A stretch of DNA of 32,000 nucleotides from Methanothermobacter marburgensis str. Marburg (GTDB taxonomy: Archaea > Methanobacteriota > Methanobacteria > Methanobacteriales > Methanothermobacteraceae). The notes under the pieces are model-generated. The model worked only from the letters and a program-made list of their open reading frames with translations, was not told the DNA's origin and did no database searches. The stretch is from the NCBI RefSeq assembly GCF_000145295.1, contig NC_014408.1:960001-992000 (forward strand). Reading direction: 5' to 3'. This document shows, piece after piece, positions 859 through 32,000 of this stretch. Both the position numbers and the translations under genes were made by a program. Position 1 is the first letter of the stretch; each line of letters opens with the position of its first letter.

Positions 859-1293
859 ATGATGATAAATTTAACAAAAACCGCCCTGAAGGTACTTGAG
901 GAGAGGTACCTCCTGAAGAACGAAAGGGGTGAGGTTGTAGAGACCCCTGAGGAGATGTTCAGGAGGGTTGCCCGTGCAGTTGCATCTGCAGATGAGATGT
1001 ATGGTTTCGACAGCTATGAGACAGAGGAACTCTTCTATTCGGTTATGCGGAATCTTGAGTTCCTCCCGAATTCACCCACCCTCATGAATGCAGGTACGCC
1101 CATAAACCAGCTCTCAGCATGTTTTGTCCTCCCTGTTGATGATTCAATTGAGAGCATATTCGAATCCCTCAGGAACATGGCAATAATCCACAAATCAGGG
1201 GGGGCGTTGGATTCTCATTTTCCAGACTCAGACCAAGGGGGGACACCGTTGCATCGACGATGGGCGTGGCCTCAGGTCCCGTGTCATTCATGA
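859..1293 (+). CDS. nrdJ: Class II (adenosylcobalamin-dependent) ribonucleotide reductase NrdJ, N-terminal fragment (frame lost at 1198-1204)
   Basis: Frame 1 gives NrdJ-type sequence (NSPTLMNAGT, LSACFVLPVDDSIESIF, IHKSGG) up to the G7 tract at 1198-1204. It then reads nonsense (ALDSHFPDSDQ...) to a stop at 1291-1293. The conserved continuation [33 protein letters not shown] lies in frame 3 from 1197. Confidence 0.85.
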   Translation: MMINLTKTALKVLEERYLLKNERGEVVETPEEMFRRVARAVASADEMYGFDSYETEELFYSVMRNLEFLPNSPTLMNAGTPINQLSACFVLPVDDSIESIFESLRNMAIIHKSGGALDSHFPDSDQGGTPLHRRWAWPQVPCHS

Positions 1294-2981
1294 GGGTATT
1301 CGACGTTGCAGTTGAGGTTATAAAGCAGGGTGGACGGAGACGTGGGGCCAATATGGGGGTGCTCCATGTCAGCCACCCCGACATATTCGGATTCATAGAG
1401 GCCAAGACATCAGAGGGGCCCCTCAGAAACTTCAACCTCTCTGTTTCGGTCCCTGACAGGTTCATGGAGGACAGGAAGATTGACCTCATAAACCCCAGGA
1501 CGGGTGAAACCGTTGACTCAGTACCATCCAGGGAGATATTCAAGAGGATTGTGAAGGCCGCCTGGAGGTCAGGGGACCCCGGAATGATATTCGAGGACAG
1601 GATAAACCGGCGCAACCCGACACCCTCCCTTGGAAGGATAGAGGCAACCAACCCATGCATATCCAGTGACACCCTGATAATGACCTCAGAGGGTCCCCTC
1701 CCGGTAAATGAACTTGAGGGCAGAGCATTCATGGCGGTTGTCAATGGCTCAGAGTATCCCTCCACTTCAGGGTTCTTTAAAACAGGTTACAGAGAGGTTT
1801 TTGAGCTTAAAACCAGGGAGGGTTACAGTTTAAAGTTGACCCATGATCACCCGGTGCTCGTAATGGAGGATAAACCAGTATGGAAGGCCGCCTGCGACCT
1901 TGAAAGGGGTGATATGCTTGTTATGGACTCGGGGAGCAGTTTTAACTCAGGGGAGAGGTTCTCCACATTTCTCTCCCTCAAAAGTAATGGTTATGAGGAT
2001 GTCTATGATGCCTGTGTTGCAGGTGCAAATGCCTTCAATGCCAACGGTTTCATTGTCCACAACTGCGGTGAGCAGCCCCTACTCCCCTATGAGTCATGTA
2101 ACCTCGGGTCAATCAACCTCTCATTAATGGTCTCAGCTTCAGGTGTGAACTGGGAAAGACTCAGAAGAACCGTCCATACAGCGGTGCACTTCCTTGACAA
2201 CGTCATAGACGTCAACAGCTACCCGCTCCCTGAGGTCAGGGAGATGACGCTGAAGACAAGGAAGATCGGCCTTGGTGTAATGGGATTCGCTGATATGCTC
2301 ATAAAGCTGGGTGTGCCCTACAATTCAGGGGAGGCTCTTGGGGTGGCTGAGCGGGTCATGTCCTTCATAGAGGGTGAAGCTAGGAGGGCCTCATCTGATC
2401 TTGCAGCTGAGAGGGGGTCGTTTCCGGAATTTTCAGGGAGCATGTGGGATAAAATGGGGTTCGAGGGGATGAGAAACGCCACACTGACAACCATTGCACC
2501 CACAGGTTCCCTCAGCATAATAGCAGGTACAAGCAGCGGGATCGAACCCCTCTTTGCGGTTTCATTCACAAGAAACATTCTGGGCAGAAAATTCACCGAA
2601 AACAATCCCCTATTTGAAAGAATCGCAAGGGGGCGGCTGAAAAGGGATACATTTGAAATGATAATATCAAAGGGCACTCTGCATGGGGTGTCAGGGGTTC
2701 CAGGAAAAATCAGGAGGCTCTTCGTAACAGCCCATGAAATCGACCCTGTCTTTCATGTTAAGATGCAGGCTGCCTTCCAGCGCCATGTGGATAACGCCGT
2801 CTCAAAAACCGTTAATCTGCCGCCTGATGCATCCATAAATGACGCTGAGAGGGTATTCGGGGCAGCATATGAACTTGGATGCAAGGGCATAACCATCTAC
2901 AGGTATGGAAGCAAAATGAATGAGGTCCTGAGGTTTCCTGAATATGCAGGGTCATGCCGGGATATGACCTGCCCCAATTGA
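1260..2981 (+). CDS. nrdJ: Class II ribonucleotide reductase NrdJ, main part including the intein (frame 3; this frame is open from 1197)
   Basis: Motifs seen: [27 protein letters not shown], an active-site TNPC...CGEQPL split by an intein, TIAPTGSLS, and a C-terminal Cys tail CRDMTCPN. The first ATG is at 1260, but the conserved sequence starts at 1197, directly after the G7 tract. Confidence 0.9.
   Translation: [573 protein letters not shown]
1656..2063 (+). mobile_element. Mini-intein (136 aa, Hint domain only, no homing endonuclease) in the NrdJ active site; homologue of the Mth RIR1 intein
   Basis: The insertion lies between IEATNP and CGEQPLLPY. Cys1 ([10 protein letters not shown]) is block A, [11 protein letters not shown] is the block B TxxH, the C-terminus is GFIVHN, and it is followed by the +1 Cys. 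It aligns by eye with the 134-aa M. thermautotrophicus RIR1 mini-intein that I remember. Confidence 0.9.
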
Positions 2982-12703: not shown

Positions 12704-14328
<1,625 letters not shown>

Positions 14329-14349
14329 TGGATCAAAAATCATATAAAA

Positions 14350-14386
14350 CCCCTTTTTTAAGGATAATGACAGAAAAAAAGGGGGG
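14350..14386 (+). terminator. Putative terminator of amt1-glnK1 (hairpin including an oligo-T run)
   Basis: CCCCTTTTTT (14350-14359) can pair with AAAAAAGGGG (~14375-14384) across a ~15-nt loop. The T6 run sits 20 nt after the glnK stop. Archaeal termination is oligo-T driven. Confidence 0.45.
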
Positions 14387-14519
14387 AAAGGCTGTCCAGT
14401 GCCCAATTAATCCAGAACTCAGCCTCCCTGATCTCTATTTAACATTTTGCTGTAATTTACCTTTTAGCCCTGAACTTATTTTAGTTTAACCCACTTTACC
14501 TGAAATTTTAACCGAAATC

Positions 14520-14528
14520 TTTATATAT
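14520..14528 (+). promoter_or_regulatory. TATA box of the amt2-glnK2 promoter
   Basis: TTTATATAT is preceded by a purine-rich BRE-like CGAAA. It is positioned ~110 nt upstream of the ATG at 14638, and the operator follows 24 nt downstream. Confidence 0.55.
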
Positions 14529-14551
14529 GAGCATGATCTAAGTGATAGTGT

Positions 14552-14567
14552 CGGAAGTTGATTTCCG
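14552..14567 (+). promoter_or_regulatory. NrpR-type nitrogen operator (CGGAA-N6-TTCCG)
   Basis: cGGAAgttgatTTCCg is an exact match to the GGAA-N6-TTCC operator defined for NrpR at Methanococcus maripaludis nif/glnA promoters. It is located where the transcription start is expected, ~25-30 nt after the TATA box. Confidence 0.65.
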
Positions 14568-14637
14568 CCTTCCGGCATTGAAGTATAAGATTGTAAAAAA
14601 CAGAATAATAACAACAGGTATATGGAGGATGACTCTG

Positions 14638-16210
<1,573 letters not shown>

Positions 16211-19810: not shown

Positions 19811-19981
19811 TAAAGTTTTCAGAGAAAATGGGAATGGTAAGCCACATGAACCATATCATCTGAAGTTTTCAGAAAAACTAAAAAATGGGAACGGGTAAAC
19901 TACCCCTGAACCATTACCATCAAACTTTCCAGAAAAAAACTAAAAATTAGAATGGTAAGCTACCCCTGAACCATTATAAGC
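19811..19981. repeat. Degenerate tandem triplication (~50/61/60 bp) of the 3' end and flank of the ExbD-like gene
   Basis: Copy C (19922-19981) contains the last codons and stop of the ExbD-like CDS (ctacccctgaaccattataagc). Copy B (19861-19921) repeats ctacccctgaaccattaccatc and the flank gttttcagaaaaactaaaaaatggga. Copy A (19811-19860) is more diverged. Confidence 0.8.
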
Positions 19982-20298
19982 TTACCTGTCTTGGGGTCCC
20001 TGTAAACTGTTCCCATCTCAACGTATCCCTGACCAGACCCCGAACTGGTCTCGGGAGTGTTGTTGAGCTCCTGGCCCTTCTGAACCTCAACTGCCTTCTT
20101 CATTGCCTCCATGGTTTCCTGACGCTCCTGTGGAGTCATGTCAGCGAATACGACATTCTGCATGTTCCAGGAGAGCACCAGGAATATGAGGAAGCCCACA
20201 GACAGGACCAGCATGGCATCAACCAGGTTTGCGCTTCCGGCCATCGGGTCCTCTTCATTTTGATCCGACAGGAGCCTTCGCCGGCGTCTGAGCGGCAT
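19960..20298 (-). CDS. ExbD/TolR-like single-pass membrane protein (DUF2149-like)
   Basis: 112 aa with an Arg-rich N-terminus (PLRRRRRL). The TM segment [19 protein letters not shown] resembles the ExbD/TolR LIDVMLVLLIFF helix, and a short soluble tail follows. The start overlaps the ExbB-like gene by 44 nt; ATG 20244 is the alternative. Confidence 0.7.
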
Positions 20299-20935
20299 TA
20301 TCCATCACCTCCAGCACTGCCTCGGCCATGGTCTCAAGGTTTGAGAGGTACTCCTCATACCATCTGCGCCTGACCTTTGAGATTACGTAGGCTATACCCC
20401 CTGATGCCAGGCCCACGACTGTTGTGTCAAAGGCTATGATGATGGCCTGGGCCAGTGTATTTATATCCCCTGCACCGAGGGCTGCCAGGCCGGGCCCCAT
20501 GGGTATGAGTGTCCCCATAAGACCAAGGGTTGGTCCGAGCCTTGTCACGATGTCCGTCTTCTCGAGGCTCTTTGCAGCCTTGAGCTCCTCGTTCTCTATG
20601 AGTTTCCTTGCAAGGGCCTCCCTTGATTTGGGTCCCAGTTCTGAAGTCTCCGCAATATTTGTAAGGACCTCCTTCTGGCTCTGTGGTATCTCCATTGAAT
20701 TTACAACCTCAATTATCCTCTCAGGGGTTCCTGGATTGGAAATTGATTTTATAGCGGATTCCAGTTCCCTGATGTCAGTCCTTATTCTTCCAGAGTACTC
20801 TGACATTAGCCCGCCAAGAGTTATTATTGCATAGACCATGAATAACAGGAGCCCTGCTATAACAGGTATGAGGAGACTCTGGGAGACAACGTGTAGTGCG
20901 CCGCTCAGTATTTCACTGCCGGGTACTGCAACCAT
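20255..20935 (-). CDS. MotA/TolQ/ExbB-family proton-channel protein
   Basis: 226 aa with three TM segments. [20 protein letters not shown] matches the MotA/TolQ/ExbB channel signature. GGTGAT lies 5 nt upstream of the ATG. Confidence 0.85.
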
Positions 20936-20951
20936 ATCCTATCACCTCTCC

Positions 20952-21662
20952 TTATTCTATGAAAGTGCTCTTTCTCTTGTTAAGGTAAATTCCAAGTCCC
21001 ATGAGCGCCAGTGTCCCCAGCACAACATATATTATGGTGTTTATGCCTGGAACCGTCAGTGGCGTCATTTTCATGCTCATGGCGCTGTTCACATTTGGAA
21101 GCACAATGGCAGCTGTCAGGAAGTAGAGACCGGCAAAAAGCATGAAGTTGCCCAGCAGAACAGGGTAGGGTTTATTGATTGCTGATGCGACTCCATTGGC
21201 AAATAAATAGAAGAACGCTATGAAGGCTGCCAGAATTATTCCGGAATATTTGCCGAGTGTGATTGCTGATACACCGAGTATGGGTGATACAAGTATTATG
21301 CTGACGATCACCGCCCCGAAACAGCAGGGGCAGGGCGCCACCATTGCAACGCACGCAGTCTTTGCTGTGTCCCTCCTGTGTTCCTTCCACTCACGGAGGG
21401 TGTGCACACCGGCAAATATCAGAATGGATGCCATTATGATTGTTATCAGTGAACTGTAGGTGTTGAAGAAGCCCTGAATCGAGTTCATGTAGGCATTTGC
21501 AAGGGCTGCAAGACCATATATGCCAAGACCGTAACCCGCCGTTATTAGGGCGGCCATCTTCCTTGATAGCCCCGCGAAACCCATTGCCAGTCCAATCTTC
21601 ACGCCGAATATCAGTAAAACCGATAGGATTCCCGCCTGCCAAAGTAGGTTTGCCATGTCCAT
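20952..21662 (-). CDS. Polytopic membrane protein with intramembrane CPCC motif (DUF2162-like predicted transporter)
   Basis: Hydrophobic throughout, with ACVAMVAPCPCCFGAV in a TM helix (Cys codons at 21321-21332). I prefer ATG 21662 (AGGTG 6 nt upstream) to the track GTG 21671. The gene ends 16 nt before the ExbB-like start. Confidence 0.75.
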   Translation of the reverse strand: MDMANLLWQAGILSVLLIFGVKIGLAMGFAGLSRKMAALITAGYGLGIYGLAALANAYMNSIQGFFNTYSSLITIIMASILIFAGVHTLREWKEHRRDTAKTACVAMVAPCPCCFGAVIVSIILVSPILGVSAITLGKYSGIILAAFIAFFYLFANGVASAINKPYPVLLGNFMLFAGLYFLTAAIVLPNVNSAMSMKMTPLTVPGINTIIYVVLGTLALMGLGIYLNKRKSTFIE

Positions 21663-21692
21663 GTTCCACACCTTCTCTTTTCAACTTTATAA

Positions 21693-21722: not shown

Positions 21723-21865
21723 TTCGCAGGATTAAAGCAGTATTTTAATACCATATTTCTTATTACTATTAGGCCCTAATGAGTAATAACTCATTCAAAC
21801 AATTTTTATTAGAATTAAAGTAAATCTGATATTTAATGTTTTCTAAAAAATAAATTATGGTGGGC

Positions 21866-23680
21866 CTACCTCCTTCCAGGTCCAAGGAAGTATCCCACAC
21901 CCACAAGTACCAGTATGGCTGCTATACCTGCCACTCCATATAACGGGAACTCTGTTCTCTGATTGACCGCTGAATGAGTTTCTTTCACCTCATAGGATTT
22001 CTGCTGACCTGCCTCTTCACCGGCTGAATCCTGTGAAGAATCTGAAACAACTGCCTGTGAAGCCGCGGAGGTTCTTCCAGCAGAACCATCAGCGGAAGTT
22101 CTTCCAGAGGATCCGCCACCTGTGGCTGAAGGGCCTGTTGTGGGTCCTGTGGATGGATTCTCACCTGGATTCACATCACCGGATGGTTCAGGTGCAAACA
22201 CCGACGCCCCTGTTGCCGCATAGAGTGCTGCAGTGAATTTCTTCCTGAGATCAGAGGACATGTACTGGCTGATCCACTTCATCAGTTCCCTGTCACCGCA
22301 GACCGATCCTGAACATGAAACACCATTCTCGGCAACGTAATTTCCAAGGCACTCTGCAATGAATGCAAGCTGCTCACTCCTGGCATTCCACTGGCCCCTG
22401 TTTGCCATCTCGGCAAAATGTGCCAGTATGTCCATTGCGGCGTAGGGGTTCTTTGAATAGGCTGTCTTCAGTCCAAGATTGTATTTATCTGCAACCACAG
22501 CGTCATAGTACTCATCCCAGAAGCCACTGTCAAGGAGTTCAGGCACCGTGTATTCCCATCCCACCAAGTGGGATGTGTACTTGGCTATGGTCCTTGGCCC
22601 CTGATACCCCTCATTAATGATTGCCTTGATCCACTCGGGATTCAGGTACCTTGTTCTGTATTCAATGGCTATAAACTGCTTCAGTGACATGACCCGGGGA
22701 TTGCCTGGGTTTGCATATCTCAGTACGTAGAGTTCCGGGGCCCTTCCATTGTTCATCATCTCGATAGCCATTGAAAGGCCGCCGAAGTAGTCGAAGTAGT
22801 CGTCGTTATCAACAACCCCATACAGGTTGGTGTTTCTGCTGTGGTATGCCGTTTGAATACCCTTGAGGAGTTCCTTGAAGGTTTCGGGCATTGAAACGCC
22901 CCAGGAACGTTCACTGTATGCATGGCTCATCCTGTTGAAGTAGATGTCTGCAAGTTCGCTTCTGTCGTTCCAGGTCCATGACACCTCTGTACCCTTACTG
23001 ACACCGGCACCGTAATCACCAACAGGCGGTGCGAAGATCCTTGTGATGGCGATTTCACCTGCATCAGTGGCGTTAAGACCCGCCTGCATGTACCTCAGGG
23101 TATCATTGATCCAGTGGAGTGCAATGTAGTTGGTGCGCAGAGGCTCGCTTCCCCTGAAGTTTGTATACTTGGCATCAACAAGTGTCTGCAGCACATGGTC
23201 AAGTGATGTTTTAAGTGACGGATAGGCCGCGACTATCTCACTGTATGAAGCGGCAAGGGCAACCCTGTATGCCCTGTCCATGTTGATGAGGAGCCTCGGG
23301 AACAGGTCCCTGAAGAGTCCGCTTGTTGTTACGATTGGATCCACCCTGGGCCTTTCTGTGAAGTTTGAAAGTCCAGATGCGGACCTTACTGAATTGATAT
23401 CTGCGAGTAGCTGTGATAGTGGTGTTGCCTTTATGTTTCCAGCCGAACCCGTTGATGACCATGTTGGCTCCACACCCATGAGTCTGAGTACGAAGGATAC
23501 CATTGTACCGTCATCACGGACAGTTTCAACACACCATACAACGGCAGCCACCTTCTCAGGTATGACATCGAACTGTACAAGTGCCATGTCAGCCAGCCTC
23601 TTACCCAGGTTCCATGCCGTCCTTGTCGGCATGAGGTTCTCTGATACCGCATAGAAGTTACTGCCTGTTGGAAGTGCCAT
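21866..23680 (-). CDS. CobN/Mg-chelatase-H family protein, C-terminal fragment with Ser/Gly/Pro linker and C-terminal TM anchor
   Basis: It starts MALPTGSNFY (canonical CobN LPTGRNFY), and YGVVDNDDYFDYFGGL is the CobN-type DDYYQYLGG motif. The C-terminus is a low-complexity linker followed by FPLYGVAGIAAILVLVGVGYFLGPGRR. It continues the 23658-26207 ORF after a 1-nt frame change at 23681-23684. Confidence 0.85.
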   Translation of the reverse strand: MALPTGSNFYAVSENLMPTRTAWNLGKRLADMALVQFDVIPEKVAAVVWCVETVRDDGTMVSFVLRLMGVEPTWSSTGSAGNIKATPLSQLLADINSVRSASGLSNFTERPRVDPIVTTSGLFRDLFPRLLINMDRAYRVALAASYSEIVAAYPSLKTSLDHVLQTLVDAKYTNFRGSEPLRTNYIALHWINDTLRYMQAGLNATDAGEIAITRIFAPPVGDYGAGVSKGTEVSWTWNDRSELADIYFNRMSHAYSERSWGVSMPETFKELLKGIQTAYHSRNTNLYGVVDNDDYFDYFGGLSMAIEMMNNGRAPELYVLRYANPGNPRVMSLKQFIAIEYRTRYLNPEWIKAIINEGYQGPRTIAKYTSHLVGWEYTVPELLDSGFWDEYYDAVVADKYNLGLKTAYSKNPYAAMDILAHFAEMANRGQWNARSEQLAFIAECLGNYVAENGVSCSGSVCGDRELMKWISQYMSSDLRKKFTAALYAATGASVFAPEPSGDVNPGENPSTGPTTGPSATGGGSSGRTSADGSAGRTSAASQAVVSDSSQDSAGEEAGQQKSYEVKETHSAVNQRTEFPLYGVAGIAAILVLVGVGYFLGPGRR

Positions 23681-26207
23681 GGGGTTTCCTGATGGGGTCG
23701 TTACCTGAACGTGGTGTTATGAACCCTCCGTTAAGGGCATCGAGAAGCGAGTTCATCTCTGAACCGAAGCTCTGATTTATAAGGTAAGCGTATCCCTTTG
23801 CCCTGTTAAGGAGTTCTATTATCTGTGCATCGTCTGTTAGGGTCTCCGGTGCTCTTCCCCTTATTATCTGGAGTATCCAGTCCACTGTCCTGTTGTTAAC
23901 CTCTTCTGCCTGGATCGCCGTGAGTTTATCGAAGTCCATGCCCATGCTGGAGGCTATAAGCCTCTGTAGCGAAGGGCTGGATGGTCCTCCGTCTGCGGAT
24001 ACTATGGCTGCTGCAAGTAGAGCCACCTCTTCATCGGTCCAGGTAAGGCCGAATGTGTGGAGCCCGACAGGCATGAGGGTCTGCTGGAGCATCACAAGGT
24101 AGTCATCAACCTTTTCAACGTCGTCCTCTGTGAAGTTTTCAGGGTTTATGTTGATCTCCGGGGCGATGTTTAGCTTTATAACCATGTTCCTTATGGACTC
24201 AAGGTACTCAGCCTTAAGGGGGCTTGCATCCGGTGTTCTTGAGTAGGTGTCTATAAGTGCCCTGAGTTCGAGGAGGTCACCGTAGAGCTGGGTTGTCTTA
24301 AGTGGTGGTGTTAGATGGTCAACTATAACGGCGTATCCCCTTCTCTTGGACTGTATGCCCTCACCCACACCGTCCACGATGTATATGTATACTGAGGGCT
24401 TTGTACCGGCACATATCTGTGAGAAGTCAAAGTTGCTGAGTGCGACCTGCTTTCTTGGGAGCCACTCGTATGTTGCATGTCTGCCTATGTGGACCTGGGC
24501 ATCCGCATTGAACACCGTGTTAACCCATGCATACCATGCAAGGTACTGGTGTGGTGGTGCCACGACCGTGCTGTGGTAGAGTTTATCAACGTCTGCCTCC
24601 CATCCCCTCTGGGGTTCAGGGCCAATGAATACGTTGCCAAACATTATACCTGGTATGACGATGTACTTTCTGCCTTTTCTCTCCACTGTCATGACATTAC
24701 CTGGTGGGGCGCCCCATCCATTGAATCCAGGAACTGCAAGGGACTGGAATTCATTTTTGAAGTTATAGAACATGCTCCACGGTGCATCTGTGCTCTGACC
24801 TGTCCTTGCATTGTTGAGAACTGCTTTCAGTGCTTCTGTCATGTTTCTTATGAGAACTGATGCCTGCTGTGCCCTCTCAGGGTAGGTGTTTGCAAGTGAT
24901 ATCATCTCAGAGGACCACTTATCAAGGGTATTCAGGGCTGCGGTGTATGCAGTGTCACTGGAGACGTAGCTGAGCGCGAGCTTAACCATCTCCTCAATGT
25001 AACCCACAGGACCCTCCACGACCTGTTTTCTCGCAATCGGGTTCATGGTCTGGAACCATGCATAGTATTCCTCCGCATCCCAGAGGATGATGGAGGTTTT
25101 ATTTGCAAGTTTCTCGAGTTCCCCCGGTGCCCATGTTGCAACGTTTATTCCCCTCTCAGTGAGGAGCTTCACAAGGTCATCAGCCGTTGAAGGGAACCCT
25201 GAAACACTGTACCCTGCACTCTGCAATGCCTTAAGAATTTCAACTATAGTCTCCGGGACGTTGAGGTAGCTTGCACCTATGTTACCCTTTCCCGGTGGAT
25301 AGTTGTAGTATATGAGTGCTATCTTCTTCTCAGGGTTGGTGAGGTACTTCAGCCTGACCCAGTTACCGATCCTGTCTGCAAGGTAATCCATCTGCTCCTC
25401 TATCGGAGTGTATGCGACGATTTCAACCCCTGTTACCGGGTCAATGCTCTTTGCGGGTGCTGCGACGAAGATGGGTTCAATGATCCCCTGTGTCTCGGGT
25501 ATCGCTATCTGGTAGTAGGTGTCGCTCCAGAGCAGCCCGTCATCCGAGAGCAGCCATTCACCCTCCTCCCTCTTGGTTGATATCATGGCCCTGAAGACAG
25601 GCACATTCATCTTCTCAAGTAGAGCAGCGGTCTGATTGACGAATCCTGAGCCAAGGGTGAATGTTGTGAAGCTTACAAGGGCATCTATCCTGTACCTGTA
25701 GTAATCACGGTTTGCCTCGTATTCTGCTGCGGTGACAACCCTTGATGGGTCTGCCGGGTCGTAGGTGAAGAACTTGACCATGGCTGAGTAGATGTTGAGT
25801 GGCTGTGTCCCGTTAACACCTGAATAGGCACCCACCACGGGTATGACATTCATTCCACGTGCAGTGAGTTTTGCTATTATGCTGTCAAAGTGGGCCATGT
25901 CCCCTGAGAGGAGTACGCTGTCAAGTCCCGCGATTCCAATGGTGGGCCTTGATGGGTTAAGGGGGTATGCTGCAAGGTACTCTGCGAGGCTGGTGAAGAC
26001 CCTGCCGTCCCTGTAGAGCATCTCTGCAGGGAGAGTTACGGGTGCTGATGGTTCCCATGCTGAGGGCCAGGTCCCTCCATTCATCACCGTGAAGTTCTTG
26101 AGAAGGAGTTTGAACTGGTTTTCATAGTTGATGGTCCCCTTCTTTGCATAGTAGAGACCGTAGGCTACCCATGGGGCAAGCTGGGGGTATGTGTTCACGT
26201 ATGCCAT
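23658..26207 (-). CDS. CobN/Mg-chelatase-H family protein, central fragment
   Basis: 849-aa ORF. VHIGRHATYEWLPRKQV matches the CobN HxGxHGxxEWLPGK motif. It ends ...SGNDPIRKPHGTSNRQ*, whereas the canonical sequence continues DPIRxPxxLPTGxN, which is found in the next frame. Confidence 0.88.
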   Translation of the reverse strand: MAYVNTYPQLAPWVAYGLYYAKKGTINYENQFKLLLKNFTVMNGGTWPSAWEPSAPVTLPAEMLYRDGRVFTSLAEYLAAYPLNPSRPTIGIAGLDSVLLSGDMAHFDSIIAKLTARGMNVIPVVGAYSGVNGTQPLNIYSAMVKFFTYDPADPSRVVTAAEYEANRDYYRYRIDALVSFTTFTLGSGFVNQTAALLEKMNVPVFRAMISTKREEGEWLLSDDGLLWSDTYYQIAIPETQGIIEPIFVAAPAKSIDPVTGVEIVAYTPIEEQMDYLADRIGNWVRLKYLTNPEKKIALIYYNYPPGKGNIGASYLNVPETIVEILKALQSAGYSVSGFPSTADDLVKLLTERGINVATWAPGELEKLANKTSIILWDAEEYYAWFQTMNPIARKQVVEGPVGYIEEMVKLALSYVSSDTAYTAALNTLDKWSSEMISLANTYPERAQQASVLIRNMTEALKAVLNNARTGQSTDAPWSMFYNFKNEFQSLAVPGFNGWGAPPGNVMTVERKGRKYIVIPGIMFGNVFIGPEPQRGWEADVDKLYHSTVVAPPHQYLAWYAWVNTVFNADAQVHIGRHATYEWLPRKQVALSNFDFSQICAGTKPSVYIYIVDGVGEGIQSKRRGYAVIVDHLTPPLKTTQLYGDLLELRALIDTYSRTPDASPLKAEYLESIRNMVIKLNIAPEININPENFTEDDVEKVDDYLVMLQQTLMPVGLHTFGLTWTDEEVALLAAAIVSADGGPSSPSLQRLIASSMGMDFDKLTAIQAEEVNNRTVDWILQIIRGRAPETLTDDAQIIELLNRAKGYAYLINQSFGSEMNSLLDALNGGFITPRSGNDPIRKPHGTSNRQ

Positions 26208-26794
26208 TAGACGGGATTCATTGGAGTTTTTAAGGTCGTACAGGATTGTGTTTTCGTGTCGGTGTTTCCTATGACTGATGATGGAATACCGTCAAATATT
26301 CTGACTCCATTTATCTGTGACATGCTGGTAAGGTCAGGGTCGCTTTCAAGGACCATGAATATCTTGTTTGACCTGTTGGATGCTATTTCAGGGTAGGCAT
26401 TCATGACGTTCCTGAAGTTTCCTGAGTCAAAGAGCCACTCTGCAATCACTATATCTGCGGATTCTATAAGCGCCCTGAGTTCCTCGGGGTTCATGCTGGC
26501 TATCTGCGCTGTGGTCCTCACCTCAAAGCGTACCGTCCATGTAGATTTATTCTCTGGATCGTAACCCGGCTGTGATGGATTTATGAGGTCCATGACCTTC
26601 TTTGCAGCGTCATTGGTCATCTTGGAACTTGTAGATGAATGTATCACAAGCACCACAGGGTCTTTAATCTGATCCGTGCCATTTACTGTCAAAGGATCTG
26701 TATCAACCTGCGTAGTGTTGTCTGCTGCTGCCACGGTCTGGCAGAGCATTGCCATGAGAAGAACTGCTGTTACTGTCATCAGATGTTTTCTCAT
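26207..26794 (-). CDS. CobN-like protein, N-terminal fragment with Sec-type signal peptide
   Basis: The N-terminus MRKHLMTVTAVLLMAMLCQTVAAA is a signal peptide. The remainder (VVLVIHSST..., ADIVIAEWLF..., KIFMVLESDPDL) resembles the first CobN domain. GGAGGTGA lies 6 nt upstream of the ATG. The stop overlaps the next ATG (TAATG), and the downstream frame is open for 27 more codons upstream. Confidence 0.75.
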   Translation of the reverse strand: MRKHLMTVTAVLLMAMLCQTVAAADNTTQVDTDPLTVNGTDQIKDPVVLVIHSSTSSKMTNDAAKKVMDLINPSQPGYDPENKSTWTVRFEVRTTAQIASMNPEELRALIESADIVIAEWLFDSGNFRNVMNAYPEIASNRSNKIFMVLESDPDLTSMSQINGVRIFDGIPSSVIGNTDTKTQSCTTLKTPMNPV

Positions 26795-26978: not shown

Positions 26979-29873
26979 TTATTTTCCTGCTCCGCCTCTC
27001 AGGAATCCGAATGCCACGAGACCTGCTGCAACAAGAACCCCGACGATACCGTAGACGTACCATGCTGATGAACCGCTGCCGCTACCTGAGGAGGTTACGT
27101 TTTCAACCTCATAGGCCCTGGCAGGGGCTGGTTCCTCTGTGGATTCTGAAGCAGCGCCAACCTCCGCAGGTGATGCCACGCTTGCTGAAAGGCCAGGTGA
27201 AACACCGCCTGTCCTTCCTGTAGTTCCGGTTGACCCATGGACACCGCCGGTTGAACCACCTGGAAGGCCTCCTGGAACTCCGCCAGGAATTCCGCCCTGG
27301 TTGCCGCCATCCACAGGTACCTGAGGTAGAATGTCTGCAAGTGTCCTGTCTGCAGGTATGCCCTTAACAAAGGCAAGTGGACTGCCACCATCTGCACCTG
27401 AAAGTATCATCTGAAGTTCAGATTCGGTTATGTATCTCTCTGCCTCTATTTTCACGACTGGGGCTGCTGTCATGTAAGATGGTGTTTCACCCTTGTAGAG
27501 GCTTATGAAACCTGCTATCTGTTTTTCTCTTTTGGCCTCATCGGTTGTGCAGTCACTCACATCAAACTGCGGCCACTGGAAGCCGATGATAACAGCCCTT
27601 CCAACCTTTTTGACACTGTCCCAGATGATCAGGATACCTTCAATTGAACCTCCAAAGTCATCGTCATCGGACATGGTATCTGCGCTTGGAAGCCTGAGGT
27701 TGAAGTAGGTTCCCTGTCCAGGTGAGACTCCCAGCCTGTAGACTATTGCATCGTCCTTGCAGTAGATGGTGTTACCCAGGTAGATGTAGCTCTCGTTCTC
27801 ATTGAGGGGGTAGTTGTTGAATATGTGCTCGGTTATGATGTAACCCGGTGATACACCTGGACATGCATGGTCATGGAAGAGGAATGTGAGTATCTGGTCG
27901 TAGGGCGGGTCGTGTCTCCATGCGTTTGCTATAGTCTGGATATTGAACCATCCATCCATTGCAAAGACCTTTGAAACCTTGCCTGTAAGCGCTGTGCTGT
28001 TAAGGGTCCTTGGACCAATGTCGTTCACGTATTTGCCGTCTGATGCATTGCTTGCAACTAGCTGTCCTGTTGCAGGGTCATAGTAGATGTACACCGCATC
28101 CATTGTAACTCCATCATAGCCCCTGAGTACAAATGTGAACCAGAGTGGCTTCCAGAGCGGCCTGTGGATTGGTAGGAGCGTTGCCCTGCTGAGCCTTGAT
28201 CCGAGAACATCAAATATTCCATCCCATGCCGCGCTCGTATCCTGTCCGTTGAGCCTTGAATAACCTGCTGATGTGAGTACAACAAGGTCCCTGTCATCCT
28301 TCTCAAGGTTTATACCCTTTTCCTGAAGGAATAACTGCTTAGCAAGGTTTGCAGCATCAGCACCGATCTTCTTTATCTGCTCGTAGGTCAGGGTGCCCTG
28401 TGGCAGTGGATTGTTTTCACGTGTTGCATTTGGAAGTCCCAGGCTGTCAATGTATGCCATGTCAAGGCCATGGGCCCTCTGGGCGCTTATATTGTACACA
28501 TTTCCATTCGCATCCCTGACTGTTGTGTTGCTTGCTGAACCAAGGAGATAGTAGTAGTGGGTTACGTTGAGGTCGGTAAGTTCCCTTACTATGGTGACGA
28601 GGGATGTTGGGTCCTGTTTAAGTTTACTTATGAGCCATGCGTTGAATTCAAGCTCTGTCCTCTTACCTGTCTCCTGCTGGAACTGCTGCCTCAGTGCTTC
28701 CTTGTCGAACTTCATGATTATAAGGTCGCCCTTGAGGGTTTTTGGGTTCCATCTGATGAATCCAACAAGGTTTGTGTCCGCACCTGTGGCTGTTGTGTTG
28801 AAACCGCTGTATGATCCTCCCTTACCCGGTGTTGTGTCAAGGAACATGAGCAGGGAGTCATCGTCTGAGTCGCCCGGGACACCTATGGTGATGTAGTTTG
28901 TTATCTCACCTGGAGAGCCCGGTGATGTGATGTCCATGATCGGTGGGTAGTACTTGAGCAGTGTGAGGCTCATTGCGTAACCGCTTATGGTACCGAGGCA
29001 CATGTGCCCGTGGAAGGCCGCTGCCCTCAGGAGGTCTGCTGGAGCATCCTGCATCCATGCATTGGCAAGGCTTGCAACAGGGAATGCGTGTTCCCCGTAT
29101 TTACTTACCAGAAGGTTCCAGTTGGCCTCTGTCATGTTCTTTAAGAGGTCGATGGTGTATATCGGTTTCCCATTGACTGTTCTGATGACAACAGGTGTTG
29201 TGCTTGCATTCTTGAAGAACACTCCAGTTAACGTGTTCCCCTTCTGGAGGATGAAGAACGTGTCCAGGGGATCCACGGGAGTCTTCCTGATCATCAGGAG
29301 GTTGCCCTTACCGTAGGTGACAATTCCTCGTGCCTGGTTCAGTATGCCCTCAATCACATCCTCTGATGTGTCGCCCCTGTACTTGACAATGCCTGCGGTT
29401 GTGATTACAAGGACATTTCCACTTGAGAAGTTGAGGATCTCATCTGCCTTCTTTGTTATTTCCCTTCCGAGCCTGTAGGCGTCGGTTGCATTCATCTTGA
29501 ATGAGAGGTGTGCATAGTAGTTCGGATCAGAGTTATCGTAGGGGTTCCTGGATAGTGTGAAGTGGTGTAAAATGTCCTTGTAGCCGGGTGCTGTTATTTT
29601 TATTGTGAACCTGGTTGTTTCCGTAACCACAGGGGGCTGGAAGGTTATCTTTGTCAGGTTGCTTGCCGGGTCAAACCTCTTTGTGAAGTTAAGCTTTTCA
29701 CCGTTCTCATCACTGATGTAGTTTATGTCTGGATTGATGCGGGTGTTGTCATCTGCGAATTCATACGTGACATTCACCCCCACCTCACATTCTGGCGTTA
29801 CTGCTGAAGCAGAGCCCGTCAGTGCAAAAGCAAAGAGAAGAGCCATTAGAACCATGAAATACTGTCTTCTCAT
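26979..29873 (-). CDS. Secreted, C-terminally membrane-anchored protein with two FmdE-like domains
   Basis: 964 aa. The signal peptide is MRRQYFMVLMALLFAFALTGSASA, and N-x-S/T sequons are numerous. There are two copies of the FmdE-type motif: ANAWMQDAPADLLRAAAFHGHMCLGTISGY (about 28977-29081) and ANAWRHDPPYDQILTFLFHDHACPGVSPGY (about 27840-27941). A Gly/Pro/Ser linker and the TM helix WYVYGIVGVLVAAGLVAFGFL follow. GGAGGTGA lies upstream of the ATG. Confidence 0.8.
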   Translation of the reverse strand: MRRQYFMVLMALLFAFALTGSASAVTPECEVGVNVTYEFADDNTRINPDINYISDENGEKLNFTKRFDPASNLTKITFQPPVVTETTRFTIKITAPGYKDILHHFTLSRNPYDNSDPNYYAHLSFKMNATDAYRLGREITKKADEILNFSSGNVLVITTAGIVKYRGDTSEDVIEGILNQARGIVTYGKGNLLMIRKTPVDPLDTFFILQKGNTLTGVFFKNASTTPVVIRTVNGKPIYTIDLLKNMTEANWNLLVSKYGEHAFPVASLANAWMQDAPADLLRAAAFHGHMCLGTISGYAMSLTLLKYYPPIMDITSPGSPGEITNYITIGVPGDSDDDSLLMFLDTTPGKGGSYSGFNTTATGADTNLVGFIRWNPKTLKGDLIIMKFDKEALRQQFQQETGKRTELEFNAWLISKLKQDPTSLVTIVRELTDLNVTHYYYLLGSASNTTVRDANGNVYNISAQRAHGLDMAYIDSLGLPNATRENNPLPQGTLTYEQIKKIGADAANLAKQLFLQEKGINLEKDDRDLVVLTSAGYSRLNGQDTSAAWDGIFDVLGSRLSRATLLPIHRPLWKPLWFTFVLRGYDGVTMDAVYIYYDPATGQLVASNASDGKYVNDIGPRTLNSTALTGKVSKVFAMDGWFNIQTIANAWRHDPPYDQILTFLFHDHACPGVSPGYIITEHIFNNYPLNENESYIYLGNTIYCKDDAIVYRLGVSPGQGTYFNLRLPSADTMSDDDDFGGSIEGILIIWDSVKKVGRAVIIGFQWPQFDVSDCTTDEAKREKQIAGFISLYKGETPSYMTAAPVVKIEAERYITESELQMILSGADGGSPLAFVKGIPADRTLADILPQVPVDGGNQGGIPGGVPGGLPGGSTGGVHGSTGTTGRTGGVSPGLSASVASPAEVGAASESTEEPAPARAYEVENVTSSGSGSGSSAWYVYGIVGVLVAAGLVAFGFLRGGAGK

Positions 29874-29928
29874 ACCTTTTCACCTCCTTTTATCTTTAAT
29901 TATTAATAATGTACAGAACTATAATGGA

Positions 29929-29945
29929 AGTAATAACATATATAA
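29929..29945 (-). promoter_or_regulatory. Putative promoter of the double-FmdE gene: TATA box immediately followed by the TTATTACT motif
   Basis: The minus strand reads gaTTATATATgTTATTACTtcc. The TATA box is at 29938-29945 and the motif at 29929-29936, ~55-65 nt upstream of the start codon at 29873. Confidence 0.45.
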
Positions 29946-30007
29946 TCATTTTGTTAATACCTTTACCTGTCGTGAAGGGATAAAAGTAATACTCAATTTT
30001 ACTTGAT

Positions 30008-30038
30008 AAAAAAAGGATTCATGGGGAAACCCCATGAA
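30008..30038 (-). terminator. Hairpin plus T7 terminator downstream of the NAS-like gene
   Basis: The minus strand reads TTCATGGGG-ttt-CCCCATGAA-tcc-TTTTTTT. The stem is a perfect 9 bp (30018-30038), and the T-run corresponds to plus-strand A7 at 30008-30014. Confidence 0.6.
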
Positions 30039-30230
30039 CTGATTGATGGAGGGAAAAATTTAATATCCAACACCGTACTGGTGTTACACTTATATCTAAA
30101 ATATGATGAGTATTTAACACTTACTATTTCATTTGTATTAATAATTAATGGGTTCCTGAGGATTCCACAGTAATAATCAACTCATCTGAAGTTTAATTGA
30201 ACTCAGGAGAGCTTGATTGGATTGAAGGTC

Positions 30231-30596
30231 CTAATCAGGGGATTTGAATACAAGTACAGATGTATTGTTAACCTTACCCGATGGTAGAACAATGCCTGCC
30301 CTCCTGAAACCCCTTACATCCTCATCACCTACAGGTGAGTAGAGTATGGCCCTCATCCCGGTGTAGGTCCTGTAAATGACCCTTGTATCCCCATCAACAT
30401 AGCGGTGGATGTTCCTGAAAACCCTCTCCTTTGGCTCTGCAAGGGCCGCCACAAGCACTATGTCGAATTCAAGGTCCCTTATTGCTGTCTCATCACCGTT
30501 GATTACCCTAACATCCCCTTCAAGTCCAAGTTTCTCTATGACCCTTCCTGCAAGTTCCGCCAGTTCGGGTTCAACTTCAACAACCGACACCCCCAT
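30231..30596 (-). CDS. Nicotianamine synthase-like protein (MtNAS type), C-terminal fragment
   Basis: GVSVVEVEPELAELAGRVIEKLG, FDIVLVAALAEPKERVFRNIHRYV, IYRTYTGMRAILY and LPSGKVNNTSVLVFKSPD match my memory of the M. thermautotrophicus thermonicotianamine synthase. The frame is open upstream through LTGILLASVHG to the C/G runs at 30629-30637. Confidence 0.8.
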   Translation of the reverse strand: MGVSVVEVEPELAELAGRVIEKLGLEGDVRVINGDETAIRDLEFDIVLVAALAEPKERVFRNIHRYVDGDTRVIYRTYTGMRAILYSPVGDEDVRGFRRAGIVLPSGKVNNTSVLVFKSPD

Positions 30597-31033
30597 GCCA
30601 TGGACACTTGCCAGGAGAATCCCTGTGAGGGGAGGGGCCCTCCCCCAATAAAGACTATTCTTTCACCCTCCCTGTACCTGCCAAGGGTTGCCTCATTTTT
30701 AAGGAGCTCGATGTAGCGAGGGTAAAAGTAGAACGACCCTAGCGTCTTCCACGGGTCCTCTGAGGCAAGGACCTCCTCAGCCTTTTCAATTTCAAGTTTC
30801 ATCCCGAGGTTGACGTAGAATCTCCTTATTACCCTGAGGGCATGATTCATCCCGGGATCATCAAGGATGTGCTTTGCAGATTCAAAGTCAATGGACTCAT
30901 CATGGGCTATCTCCTCAATCTCATCAAGGAGGGGGATTACGGCTTCAACGTTCATCCCATGTATCCCATAATCCATACCCTCAAGTCTTGATGCTATCGA
31001 CCTGATCCTATCCCAGTAGATGTAACAGCTCAT
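30536..31033 (-). CDS. Nicotianamine synthase-like protein, N-terminal fragment (frame lost at 30629-30632)
   Basis: MSCYIYWDRIRSIASRLEG..., FYFYPRYIELLKNE and ERIVFIGGGPLP are followed by nonsense (SQGFSWQVSMAWGCRLL...). The expected continuation LTGILLAS is in the frame of the 30231-30596 ORF. Confidence 0.8.
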   Translation of the reverse strand: MSCYIYWDRIRSIASRLEGMDYGIHGMNVEAVIPLLDEIEEIAHDESIDFESAKHILDDPGMNHALRVIRRFYVNLGMKLEIEKAEEVLASEDPWKTLGSFYFYPRYIELLKNEATLGRYREGERIVFIGGGPLPSQGFSWQVSMAWGCRLLKLNPNWRNLQEGS

Positions 31034-31362
31034 GAATATACTTCCATGTAGTTTGTGGACGATGCTCCTTTAATTGGATTAATAAACGGATCCAAGGTTT
31101 ATGGATGATCCCCCATCCAGATCTGAATTAATAACAGACCCCCTATGTTATCATAAACAGGCATCCTTTATTCGCCGGCACATATTAGTTTTGCCATGGT
31201 ACTTATAGGAGATATGGATACATATTATACACAAGGAATGTAGTATTACATATAATCCTTAAAATCGTGATAAAGTATTACTTTGGGGTGGTGTTTATTA
31301 TCAGAGTAACGACACCGGGAGAAGAGTAGGATCCTAAATCAGTCAGGGCATTTCTCTTCAGG

Positions 31363-31875
31363 ATGATAAAGAGGGAGTTCGGTTTTGATTACATACCCGA
31401 GTACCACAGGGACATAGTCAACCTTGAAGAATACTACCTGGAACCTGAAAGGAACACCTTCCTCCTTGCCTGCATTGGTGACAGGCTGGTTGGAACCCTC
31501 GGCCTCCGCGCCTATGACCGTGAATTCAGGGGCCTCAATTACGACCCTGAAAGGACGGCCAGCCTCTGGAGGGTCTTTGTGCATGAGGACTGCAGGAAGA
31601 TGGGTGTTGCATCATACCTTGTGGAAATTGCAGAATCCTTTGCAGCAGAGAAGGGCTATACCCGTATCTACCTTCACACTCATAAACACGTTGAGGGTGC
31701 CCTTGAATTCTGGCTCTCAAAGGGTTACAGCATAGTTATTGACACTGACAATGAACTTGGAACCGTCCACATGGAAAAGTCCCTTAACAGGAGTTCAATG
31801 GGAAACCAGGATTTCAGTGGAACCTGTTCTACCATAAAAAGAGGAGGAACAGGGCATCAGATGACATTTTTTTGA
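31363..31875 (+). CDS. GNAT-family N-acetyltransferase (as called from ATG 31363; N-terminal strand lies upstream of an in-frame TAG)
   Basis: The GNAT core is FLLACIGDRLVGTLGLR, WRVFVHEDCRKMGVASYLV and YTRIYLHT. In the same frame, VVFIIRVTTPGEE-TAG-DPKSVRAFLFRM precedes the ATG. Confidence 0.75.
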   Translation: MIKREFGFDYIPEYHRDIVNLEEYYLEPERNTFLLACIGDRLVGTLGLRAYDREFRGLNYDPERTASLWRVFVHEDCRKMGVASYLVEIAESFAAEKGYTRIYLHTHKHVEGALEFWLSKGYSIVIDTDNELGTVHMEKSLNRSSMGNQDFSGTCSTIKRGGTGHQMTFF

Positions 31876-32000
31876 GCGAAAGGATTGCTTGATGCCCTGT
31901 TTGAGCTGGCTTCCGTTGATATCCTAGGAGGAATTCATGCTCAGAGATATACTTGGCAGAGGATATATAAATACTTTTTGAAAAAAAATTATTACTCATT

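Follow-up and report, generated by a model that had tools for sequence, protein, structure and literature searches.

In the genome of Methanothermobacter marburgensis str. Marburg, the gene of thermonicotianamine synthase, a member of the nicotianamine synthase (NAS) family, is interrupted by the loss of a single nucleotide, and we consider it very probable that this is a genuine, inherited loss-of-function allele. The gene was analyzed in a stretch of 32,000 nucleotides (contig NC_014408.1, positions 960,001 to 992,000 of the forward strand), which is called the window in the following text and to which all coordinates refer. Here, NAS is a real pseudogene within a decaying nickel-responsive locus, in which a CobN-like gene is also broken and the genes for an FmdE-like protein and several membrane proteins are intact.

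The NAS gene and its lesion

The original prediction interpreted two open reading frames (ORFs), which overlap in different frames (30536..31033 and 30231..30596), as parts of one protein similar to MtNAS, and this interpretation was borne out. MtNAS is the thermonicotianamine synthase of M. thermautotrophicus, which was reportedly crystallized by Dreyfus and colleagues in 2009 (PDB 3FPE, 3FPF, 3FPG, 3O31). When the two ORFs were merged at the motif GGGCCCCTCCCCTCACAGGG (30621-30640), we obtained a repaired protein of 267 aa, and residues 1-267 of this protein aligned collinearly with residues 1-266 of MtNAS (3FPE/3FPG/3O31; E 4e-134). The two proteins share about 75% identity over their whole length and FIGGGPLPLTGILL is identical in both. 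Since the alignment extends from end to end, the gene is the MtNAS orthologue. Its parts are as follows:

30536..31033, minus strand: NAS 5' piece, 165 aa; native residues 1-135 followed by 30 out-of-frame residues and a stop codon
30629..30637, minus strand: lesion site; coding strand CCCCTCCCC, in intact alleles CCCCTTCCCC; one T absent
30231..30632, minus strand: NAS 3' piece in the -1 frame; Leu136 to the stop codon, which is the rest of the Rossmann fold

The 3' ORF was listed as 30231..30596 (121 aa) because it begins at an internal ATG at 30596, and the same frame is open upstream to 30662. The 5' piece comprises the N-terminal helical domain with E81 and Y107 and the start of motif I for S-adenosylmethionine (SAM) binding. 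In an alignment of 12 NAS proteins that are 50-76% identical to the repaired protein, E81, Y107 and G130-T137 are invariant columns, and all of them are present in it; a catalytic role of the NAS glutamate and tyrosine has been described before (PMC10248798). Precomputed annotation of identical genes in other genomes records the NAS family (Pfam PF03059) on both halves, and the same family is recorded on all homologues found. Among the sequence features expected for a member of this family, only the uninterrupted reading frame is lacking, owing to the 1-nt deletion at 30633.

The deletion falls inside the invariant SAM-binding motif GGGPLPLTG. Intact alleles (L004-L008, L025) carry GGGCCCCTTCCCCTCACAGGG, one T more than the window, and read GGG CCC CTT CCC CTC ACA GGG, whereas the window reads GGG CCC CTC CCC TCA CAG GG. 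The lost nucleotide belonged to the Leu134 codon CTT and is one of a TT pair outside any homopolymer; the remaining T corresponds to the plus-strand A at 30633. It had been proposed that one more C in the run at 30629-30632 would repair the frame. Such an insertion does restore GGGPLPLTG, but the nucleotide really lost is a T, and the run is C4 in the window and in the intact alleles alike. A protein identical to the repaired NAS exists in the protein database (P0123, 267 aa), as do further intact variants (P0131, P0133), and NAS genes of the M. thermautotrophicus type and more distant ones have different codons at this position, with the frame intact.

From this deletion it can be predicted that translation would yield 135 native residues, then 30 foreign ones, and stop. 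This would cut off the catalytic N-terminal domain from most of the Rossmann fold, which would be lost beyond the first glycine loop, and the 3' piece would start at an internal methionine ten residues past the break. Because of this separation of the two domains, the strain most likely makes no thermonicotianamine from SAM and glutamate.

The truncated products recur in many other sequences. The 165-aa product (P0135) was found on 108 contigs and in 150 index blocks, and the 121-aa product (P0121) on 111 contigs, and these counts pool the minus-T allele of the window with a second broken allele described below. The contigs originate from NCBI, ENA, JGI and Logan, include many metagenomes and also three complete genomes (CP069376, CP044013, CP043480). 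The suspicion that the frameshift could be real has therefore been substantiated: since identical products recur on more than 100 contigs and the base was lost outside any homopolymer, random sequencing error is excluded and the frameshift is inherited.

The second broken allele, CCCCTTCCC, occurs in L018 (CP043480) and L026. It differs from the first lesion by one base and encodes the same truncated protein. This allele arose either by loss of a C from the run or by a C>T change in the first allele.

Two additional NAS variants were observed in other contigs. In five Logan contigs (L107-L111), the gene is disrupted despite an intact CCCCTTCCCC by 65 extra bases after codon 38, which consist of 35 foreign bases and a 30-nt duplication. 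This variant may be an assembly artefact, since the length of the duplication equals the assembler's k-1. On a single contig (L003), a NAS gene with intact CCCCTTCCCC has lost a G at codon 23 and carries Gly138Trp.

Allele backgrounds and alternative explanations

To describe the genomic background of the broken allele we compared the window with related loci. The closest of them (L017, CP069376.1, the proteins of which are labelled M. marburgensis at NCBI) differs from the window by 1 mismatch in 11,465 bases. Over 6 kb of housekeeping genes upstream of the neighbouring GNAT gene, L017 is about 10.6% divergent (aligned columns) from every M. wolfeii-type locus, and for the same stretch a sliding profile gave about 84% identity. 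In contrast, identity with M. wolfeii-type loci is 99.6-100% in the region at about 27240-32000 of the window (L017 7.3-14 kb), which starts about 2.7 kb upstream of NAS and runs on across both this gene and the FmdE-like gene. Because of this difference between the NAS block and the upstream housekeeping genes, the data suggest that the broken gene lies within a block that was recently exchanged between the lineages by recombination or transfer. Beyond the shared block, stretches of about 100% identity alternate with stretches of 75-85%, and the pattern differs between partner loci.

The minus-T, the minus-C and the intact alleles each occur on more than one background of single-nucleotide polymorphisms (SNPs), which may reflect either recombination or recurrent mutation. 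The minus-T allele is very young, as it differs from intact alleles at 0-2 positions. One might imagine that the 10-nt motif CCCCTTCCCC is a contingency hotspot, which reversibly toggles metallophore production within populations. The three states of the motif are indeed found on near-identical as well as on different SNP backgrounds, and the minus-T allele forms a perfect (CCCCT)2 repeat. However, the tracts comprise 2 and 4 bases, far fewer than the repeats of known phase-variable loci, recombination can account for the shuffled backgrounds because the locus is visibly a mosaic, and the minus-C state can be reached from the minus-T state via one C>T change. We therefore regard a switch as improbable.

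Slightly less probable still is recoding, by which a -1 slip of tRNA-Pro on C_CCC, or transcriptional slippage, would yield a full-length active NAS with the junction peptide IVFIGGGPLPLTGILLASVHGMGVSVVEVEPELAELAGR. The attraction of this idea is that after CTC CCC a -1 slip re-pairs with CCC and then reads CTC ACA GGG, which gives exactly GPLPLTG. A programmed -1 frameshift site was rejected, since there is no X_XXY_YYZ heptamer at the site, the downstream RNA fold is no better than that of shuffled sequences (z = -0.67) and the shift is not kept in close relatives, which carry a plain in-frame NAS gene. Moreover, the codon that follows, TCA, encodes Ser more often than any other in the genes of the window and is thus not a pausing codon, the second allele CCCCTTCCC would not permit the same re-pairing, and no NAS product is present in published proteome tables.

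A sequencing or assembly error, with an intact gene in the living strain, is very unlikely. The lesion does lie between two short C runs, a ribonucleotide reductase gene of the same genome is also split (at a G7 run), and some metagenome assemblies contain an intact NAS. Against these points stand the position of the missing T outside any homopolymer and the recurrence of the truncated products across independent projects, assemblers and complete genomes, and a split NAS gene would fit into the series of locus tags in the 2010 Marburg genome. Finally, assembly of the two pieces into an active two-part enzyme is the least probable of all: many genomes retain the two ORFs free of additional lesions, but the break lies inside the glycine-rich SAM loop, the second ORF begins 10 residues on at an internal Met so that the strand after the loop is lost, and the absence of further decay carries little weight in an allele this young.

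The nickel-responsive locus

The locus that responds to nickel starvation consists of the genes for GNAT, NAS, the FmdE-like protein, the CobN-like protein, DUF2162, the ExbB-like protein and DUF2149. In addition to NAS the following features were located:

31363..31875, plus strand: GNAT N-acetyltransferase (MTBMA_c10620, 20 kDa; Pfam match), divergent from NAS with a 329-nt spacer
26979..29873, minus strand: FmdE-like protein (MTBMA_c10580), predicted at the cell surface; intact, 964 aa, two FmdE domains, signal peptide, C-terminal membrane anchor
26207..26794, minus strand: CobN-like piece 1, 195 aa, signal peptide; ends via an A lost from an A5 run (A4 at 26251-26254)
23658..26207, minus strand: CobN-like piece 2, 849 aa, CobN-Mg_chel
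21866..23680, minus strand: CobN-like piece 3, 604 aa, C-terminal membrane anchor; an inserted G (GG at 23688-23689) parts it from piece 2
21760..21789: TTATTAC-N16-GTAATAA, a perfect palindrome that precedes the DUF2162 gene by about 90 nt
20952..21671, minus strand: DUF2162 predicted membrane transporter, intact (Pfam)
20255..20935, minus strand: MotA/TolQ/ExbB-family proton channel protein, intact (Pfam)
19960..20298, minus strand: DUF2149 protein, intact; HmuV family (Bacteroidota hmu operon)

Published proteomics on nickel limitation in M. marburgensis (2025 Nature paper, supplements, PMC12350162) lists c10550, c10560, c10570 and c10580 with 66, 94, 21 and 105 kDa, and these masses fit the 604, 849, 195 and 964 aa of the window proteins. 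In the table obtained by data-independent acquisition, c10580 rises from 1.3-2.6e7 at 5 µM nickel to 5.5-7.3e9 at 250 to 10 nM, which is an about 300-fold increase to some 3% of total intensity, and c10530 ('predicted transporter') rises about 40-fold, from 4-6e6 to approximately 2e8 (PMC12350162). Iron limitation raises neither c10580 nor c10530, and c10530 also shows no increase when H2/CO2 is limiting (PMC12350162). These data support the proposal that the block is metal-linked, they tie the locus to nickel, and the FmdE-like neighbour of NAS is one of the most strongly nickel-induced proteins of the cell. The CobN-like pieces and the products of c10590-10610 are missing from the quantitative tables (PMC12350162), which is weak evidence but consistent with two pseudogenes lacking a stable product.

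In relatives, the CobN-like protein is encoded by a single gene (1624-1646 aa). Its three-piece state was already present in the 2010 Marburg genome, since Kaster et al. (2011; PMC3087415) list three coding sequences, MTBMA_c10550-10570, which together correspond to the single gene MTH673. The same G insertion is found in the M. wolfeii-type loci L009, L011, L013 and L014, and some of the loci carrying it have further frameshifts and up to four in-frame stops. In several lineages, the CobN-like gene is thus a pseudogene in decay. Among the loci examined, which stem from genomes that are not independent samples, CobN-like lesions co-occur only with the minus-T NAS allele, and every locus with an intact NAS or the minus-C allele has an intact CobN-like gene. 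It had been suggested that this strain could still take up the compound without producing it. With two frameshifts in the CobN-like gene of the same block, this appears doubtful.

The FmdE-like and CobN-like proteins are predicted to be extracytoplasmic surface proteins, because a signal peptide and a C-terminal membrane anchor are present in each of them. For the FmdE-like protein, sequence search found no relative in the PDB. In the database, the 964-aa protein clusters with an entry annotated by reference to Marburg ADL58652. The FmdE-like gene shows presence/absence polymorphism: some M. wolfeii-type loci (L004, L012, L016) lack it wholly and have the CobN-like gene as the next gene after NAS, L006 has a split copy, and other copies encode 951 aa instead of 964 aa. 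As to regulation, 8 of the 12 palindrome half-sites of the whole window sit in the three intergenic regions of the locus. M. thermautotrophicus-type loci retain the half-sites with a different spacer, and M. wolfeii-type loci lack them. The palindrome, a single perfect site, is a weakly supported candidate operator of a metal regulator.

For synteny analysis we inspected 35 NAS loci of at least 12 kb with 49-76% identity to the query. GNAT was the most constant partner of NAS (28 of the 35 loci, on Methanobacteriales-type contigs), followed by the CobN-like gene (7), the FmdE-like gene (7), DUF2162 (5) and ExbB (5). Two M. thermautotrophicus-type loci (L028, L053) encode a NAS that is identical at 266 of 266 residues to the crystallized MtNAS, which we take to be MTH675, and this gene is followed by FmdE-like, CobN-like, DUF2162 and ExbB genes. 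The expected synteny of NAS with the uptake block thus held in full within Methanothermobacter and in part elsewhere; the link is firm in this genus and recurrent but not general outside it. Other arrangements were also seen. On contigs of distant methanogens (L024 10908-13560; L001 7990-9598), NAS has a second NAS paralogue and an ABC ATPase gene as neighbours, in L024 together with a radical-SAM gene, and in L022 it lies beside CbiM/CbiMNQ nickel/cobalt transporter genes and an MFS gene.

A wider model, to which we would give not quite an even chance, assigns the NAS product a part in nickel acquisition and has it handled by the surface and membrane proteins. The model is an inference from the genes around NAS and from the specific response of these neighbours to nickel, and the block would then act as an uptake system for the NAS product. 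Several points weigh against our overall interpretation of NAS and its locus. The role of thermonicotianamine in nickel metabolism is putative, and outside Methanothermobacter only about one third of the NAS loci hold any component of the block. The absence of NAS fragments from the proteome tables is weak evidence, and c10590-10610 were assigned to the NAS pieces by position alone. Lastly, low-level ribosomal slippage on C_CCC, if it took place at all, which we think improbable, would regenerate the exact native protein.

Two further observations concern the remaining window. An intein-containing class II ribonucleotide reductase gene (859-2981, plus strand) is split into ORFs of 144 aa and 573 aa at the G7 run 1198-1204. 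Its intact relatives (706-707 aa) need G8, and the 144-aa piece occurs on 8 contigs including strain KEPCO-1. Such a split is odd for a presumably important gene and could be real, recoded or a recurrent homopolymer error. At 12704-16210 (plus strand) there are two successive, ordinary-looking pairs of ammonium transporter and P-II (GlnB-like) genes.

Comparison with known systems and significance

The closest known counterpart is MtNAS of M. thermautotrophicus, which shares E81, Y107 and the SAM motif with the repaired protein and has the same flanks, GNAT upstream and FmdE-like, CobN-like, DUF2162 and ExbB genes downstream. In contrast, the window NAS is interrupted by the 1-nt deletion and predicted to be inactive, and its CobN-like neighbour is broken as well. 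CntL of the cnt operon (staphylopine, with pseudopaline and yersinopine as relatives) matches NAS weakly over the Rossmann part (E 3.6e-4), and there too a NAS-like aminobutyrate transferase gene stands beside metal-acquisition genes. However, Pfam scans of all large ORFs of the window detected no opine dehydrogenase (CntM), racemase (CntK), ABC importer or exporter (MFS), and the neighbours are FmdE-like and CobN-like proteins predicted at the surface and an ExbB-type module. A cnt-type opine metallophore operon was ruled out on these grounds.

The gene order CobN family, membrane protein, MotA/TolQ/ExbB and DUF2149 matches hmuS-T-U-V of the heme-uptake operon of Bacteroidota, although the match at the T position consists only in being a membrane protein. 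Papers differ in how they describe HmuT. HmuS strips iron from heme outside the cytoplasm and the function of its archaeal CobN/HmuS homologues is described as unclear (EMBO J 2025, PMC12583661). The archaeal CobN-like protein is likewise predicted to be extracytoplasmic, but its gene is frameshifted here. Pfam scans of the window found neither a HmuY hemophore nor a TonB-dependent receptor, the latter because the cell has no outer membrane. One may speculate that a proton-driven module could replace the ATPase partners used by cytoplasmic CobN-type chelatases.

Bacterial populations contain siderophore non-producers ('cheaters') such as pyoverdine-negative Pseudomonas. As in these populations, broken and intact biosynthetic alleles occur here within one species and part of the acquisition machinery is kept. 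On the other hand, secretion and sharing of the NAS product are putative, and the CobN-like protein, as putative receptor side, also decays in several lineages. Thermonicotianamine might be a nickel-scavenging metallophore of methanogens and a polymorphic shared good, with producer and non-producer alleles recombining among Methanothermobacter lineages, and an archaeal machine of nickel-induced FmdE-like and CobN-like surface proteins, a proton-driven ExbB/DUF2149 module and DUF2162 as permease might capture the complex and strip off the metal as HmuS does. We consider this scenario doubtful.

Public annotation already shows the NAS pseudogene as two 'nicotianamine synthase family protein' entries, and by listing the halves separately such entries overstate the capacity of the organism. 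A literature search found no paper discussing this pseudogene. The exact lesion, the distribution of two broken alleles and intact ones across a species boundary, and the joint decay with the CobN-like gene beside a highly nickel-induced protein appear to be new. To our knowledge, no study since the crystallization of the enzyme in 2009 has established a physiological role for the product of archaeal NAS. The locus described here unites NAS with a surface protein that makes up about 3% of the proteome measured under nickel shortage and with a CobN/ExbB module resembling that of heme iron extraction. Since intact and broken NAS alleles occur on almost identical backgrounds and the M. thermautotrophicus locus is whole, the question of this role is testable with existing strains.

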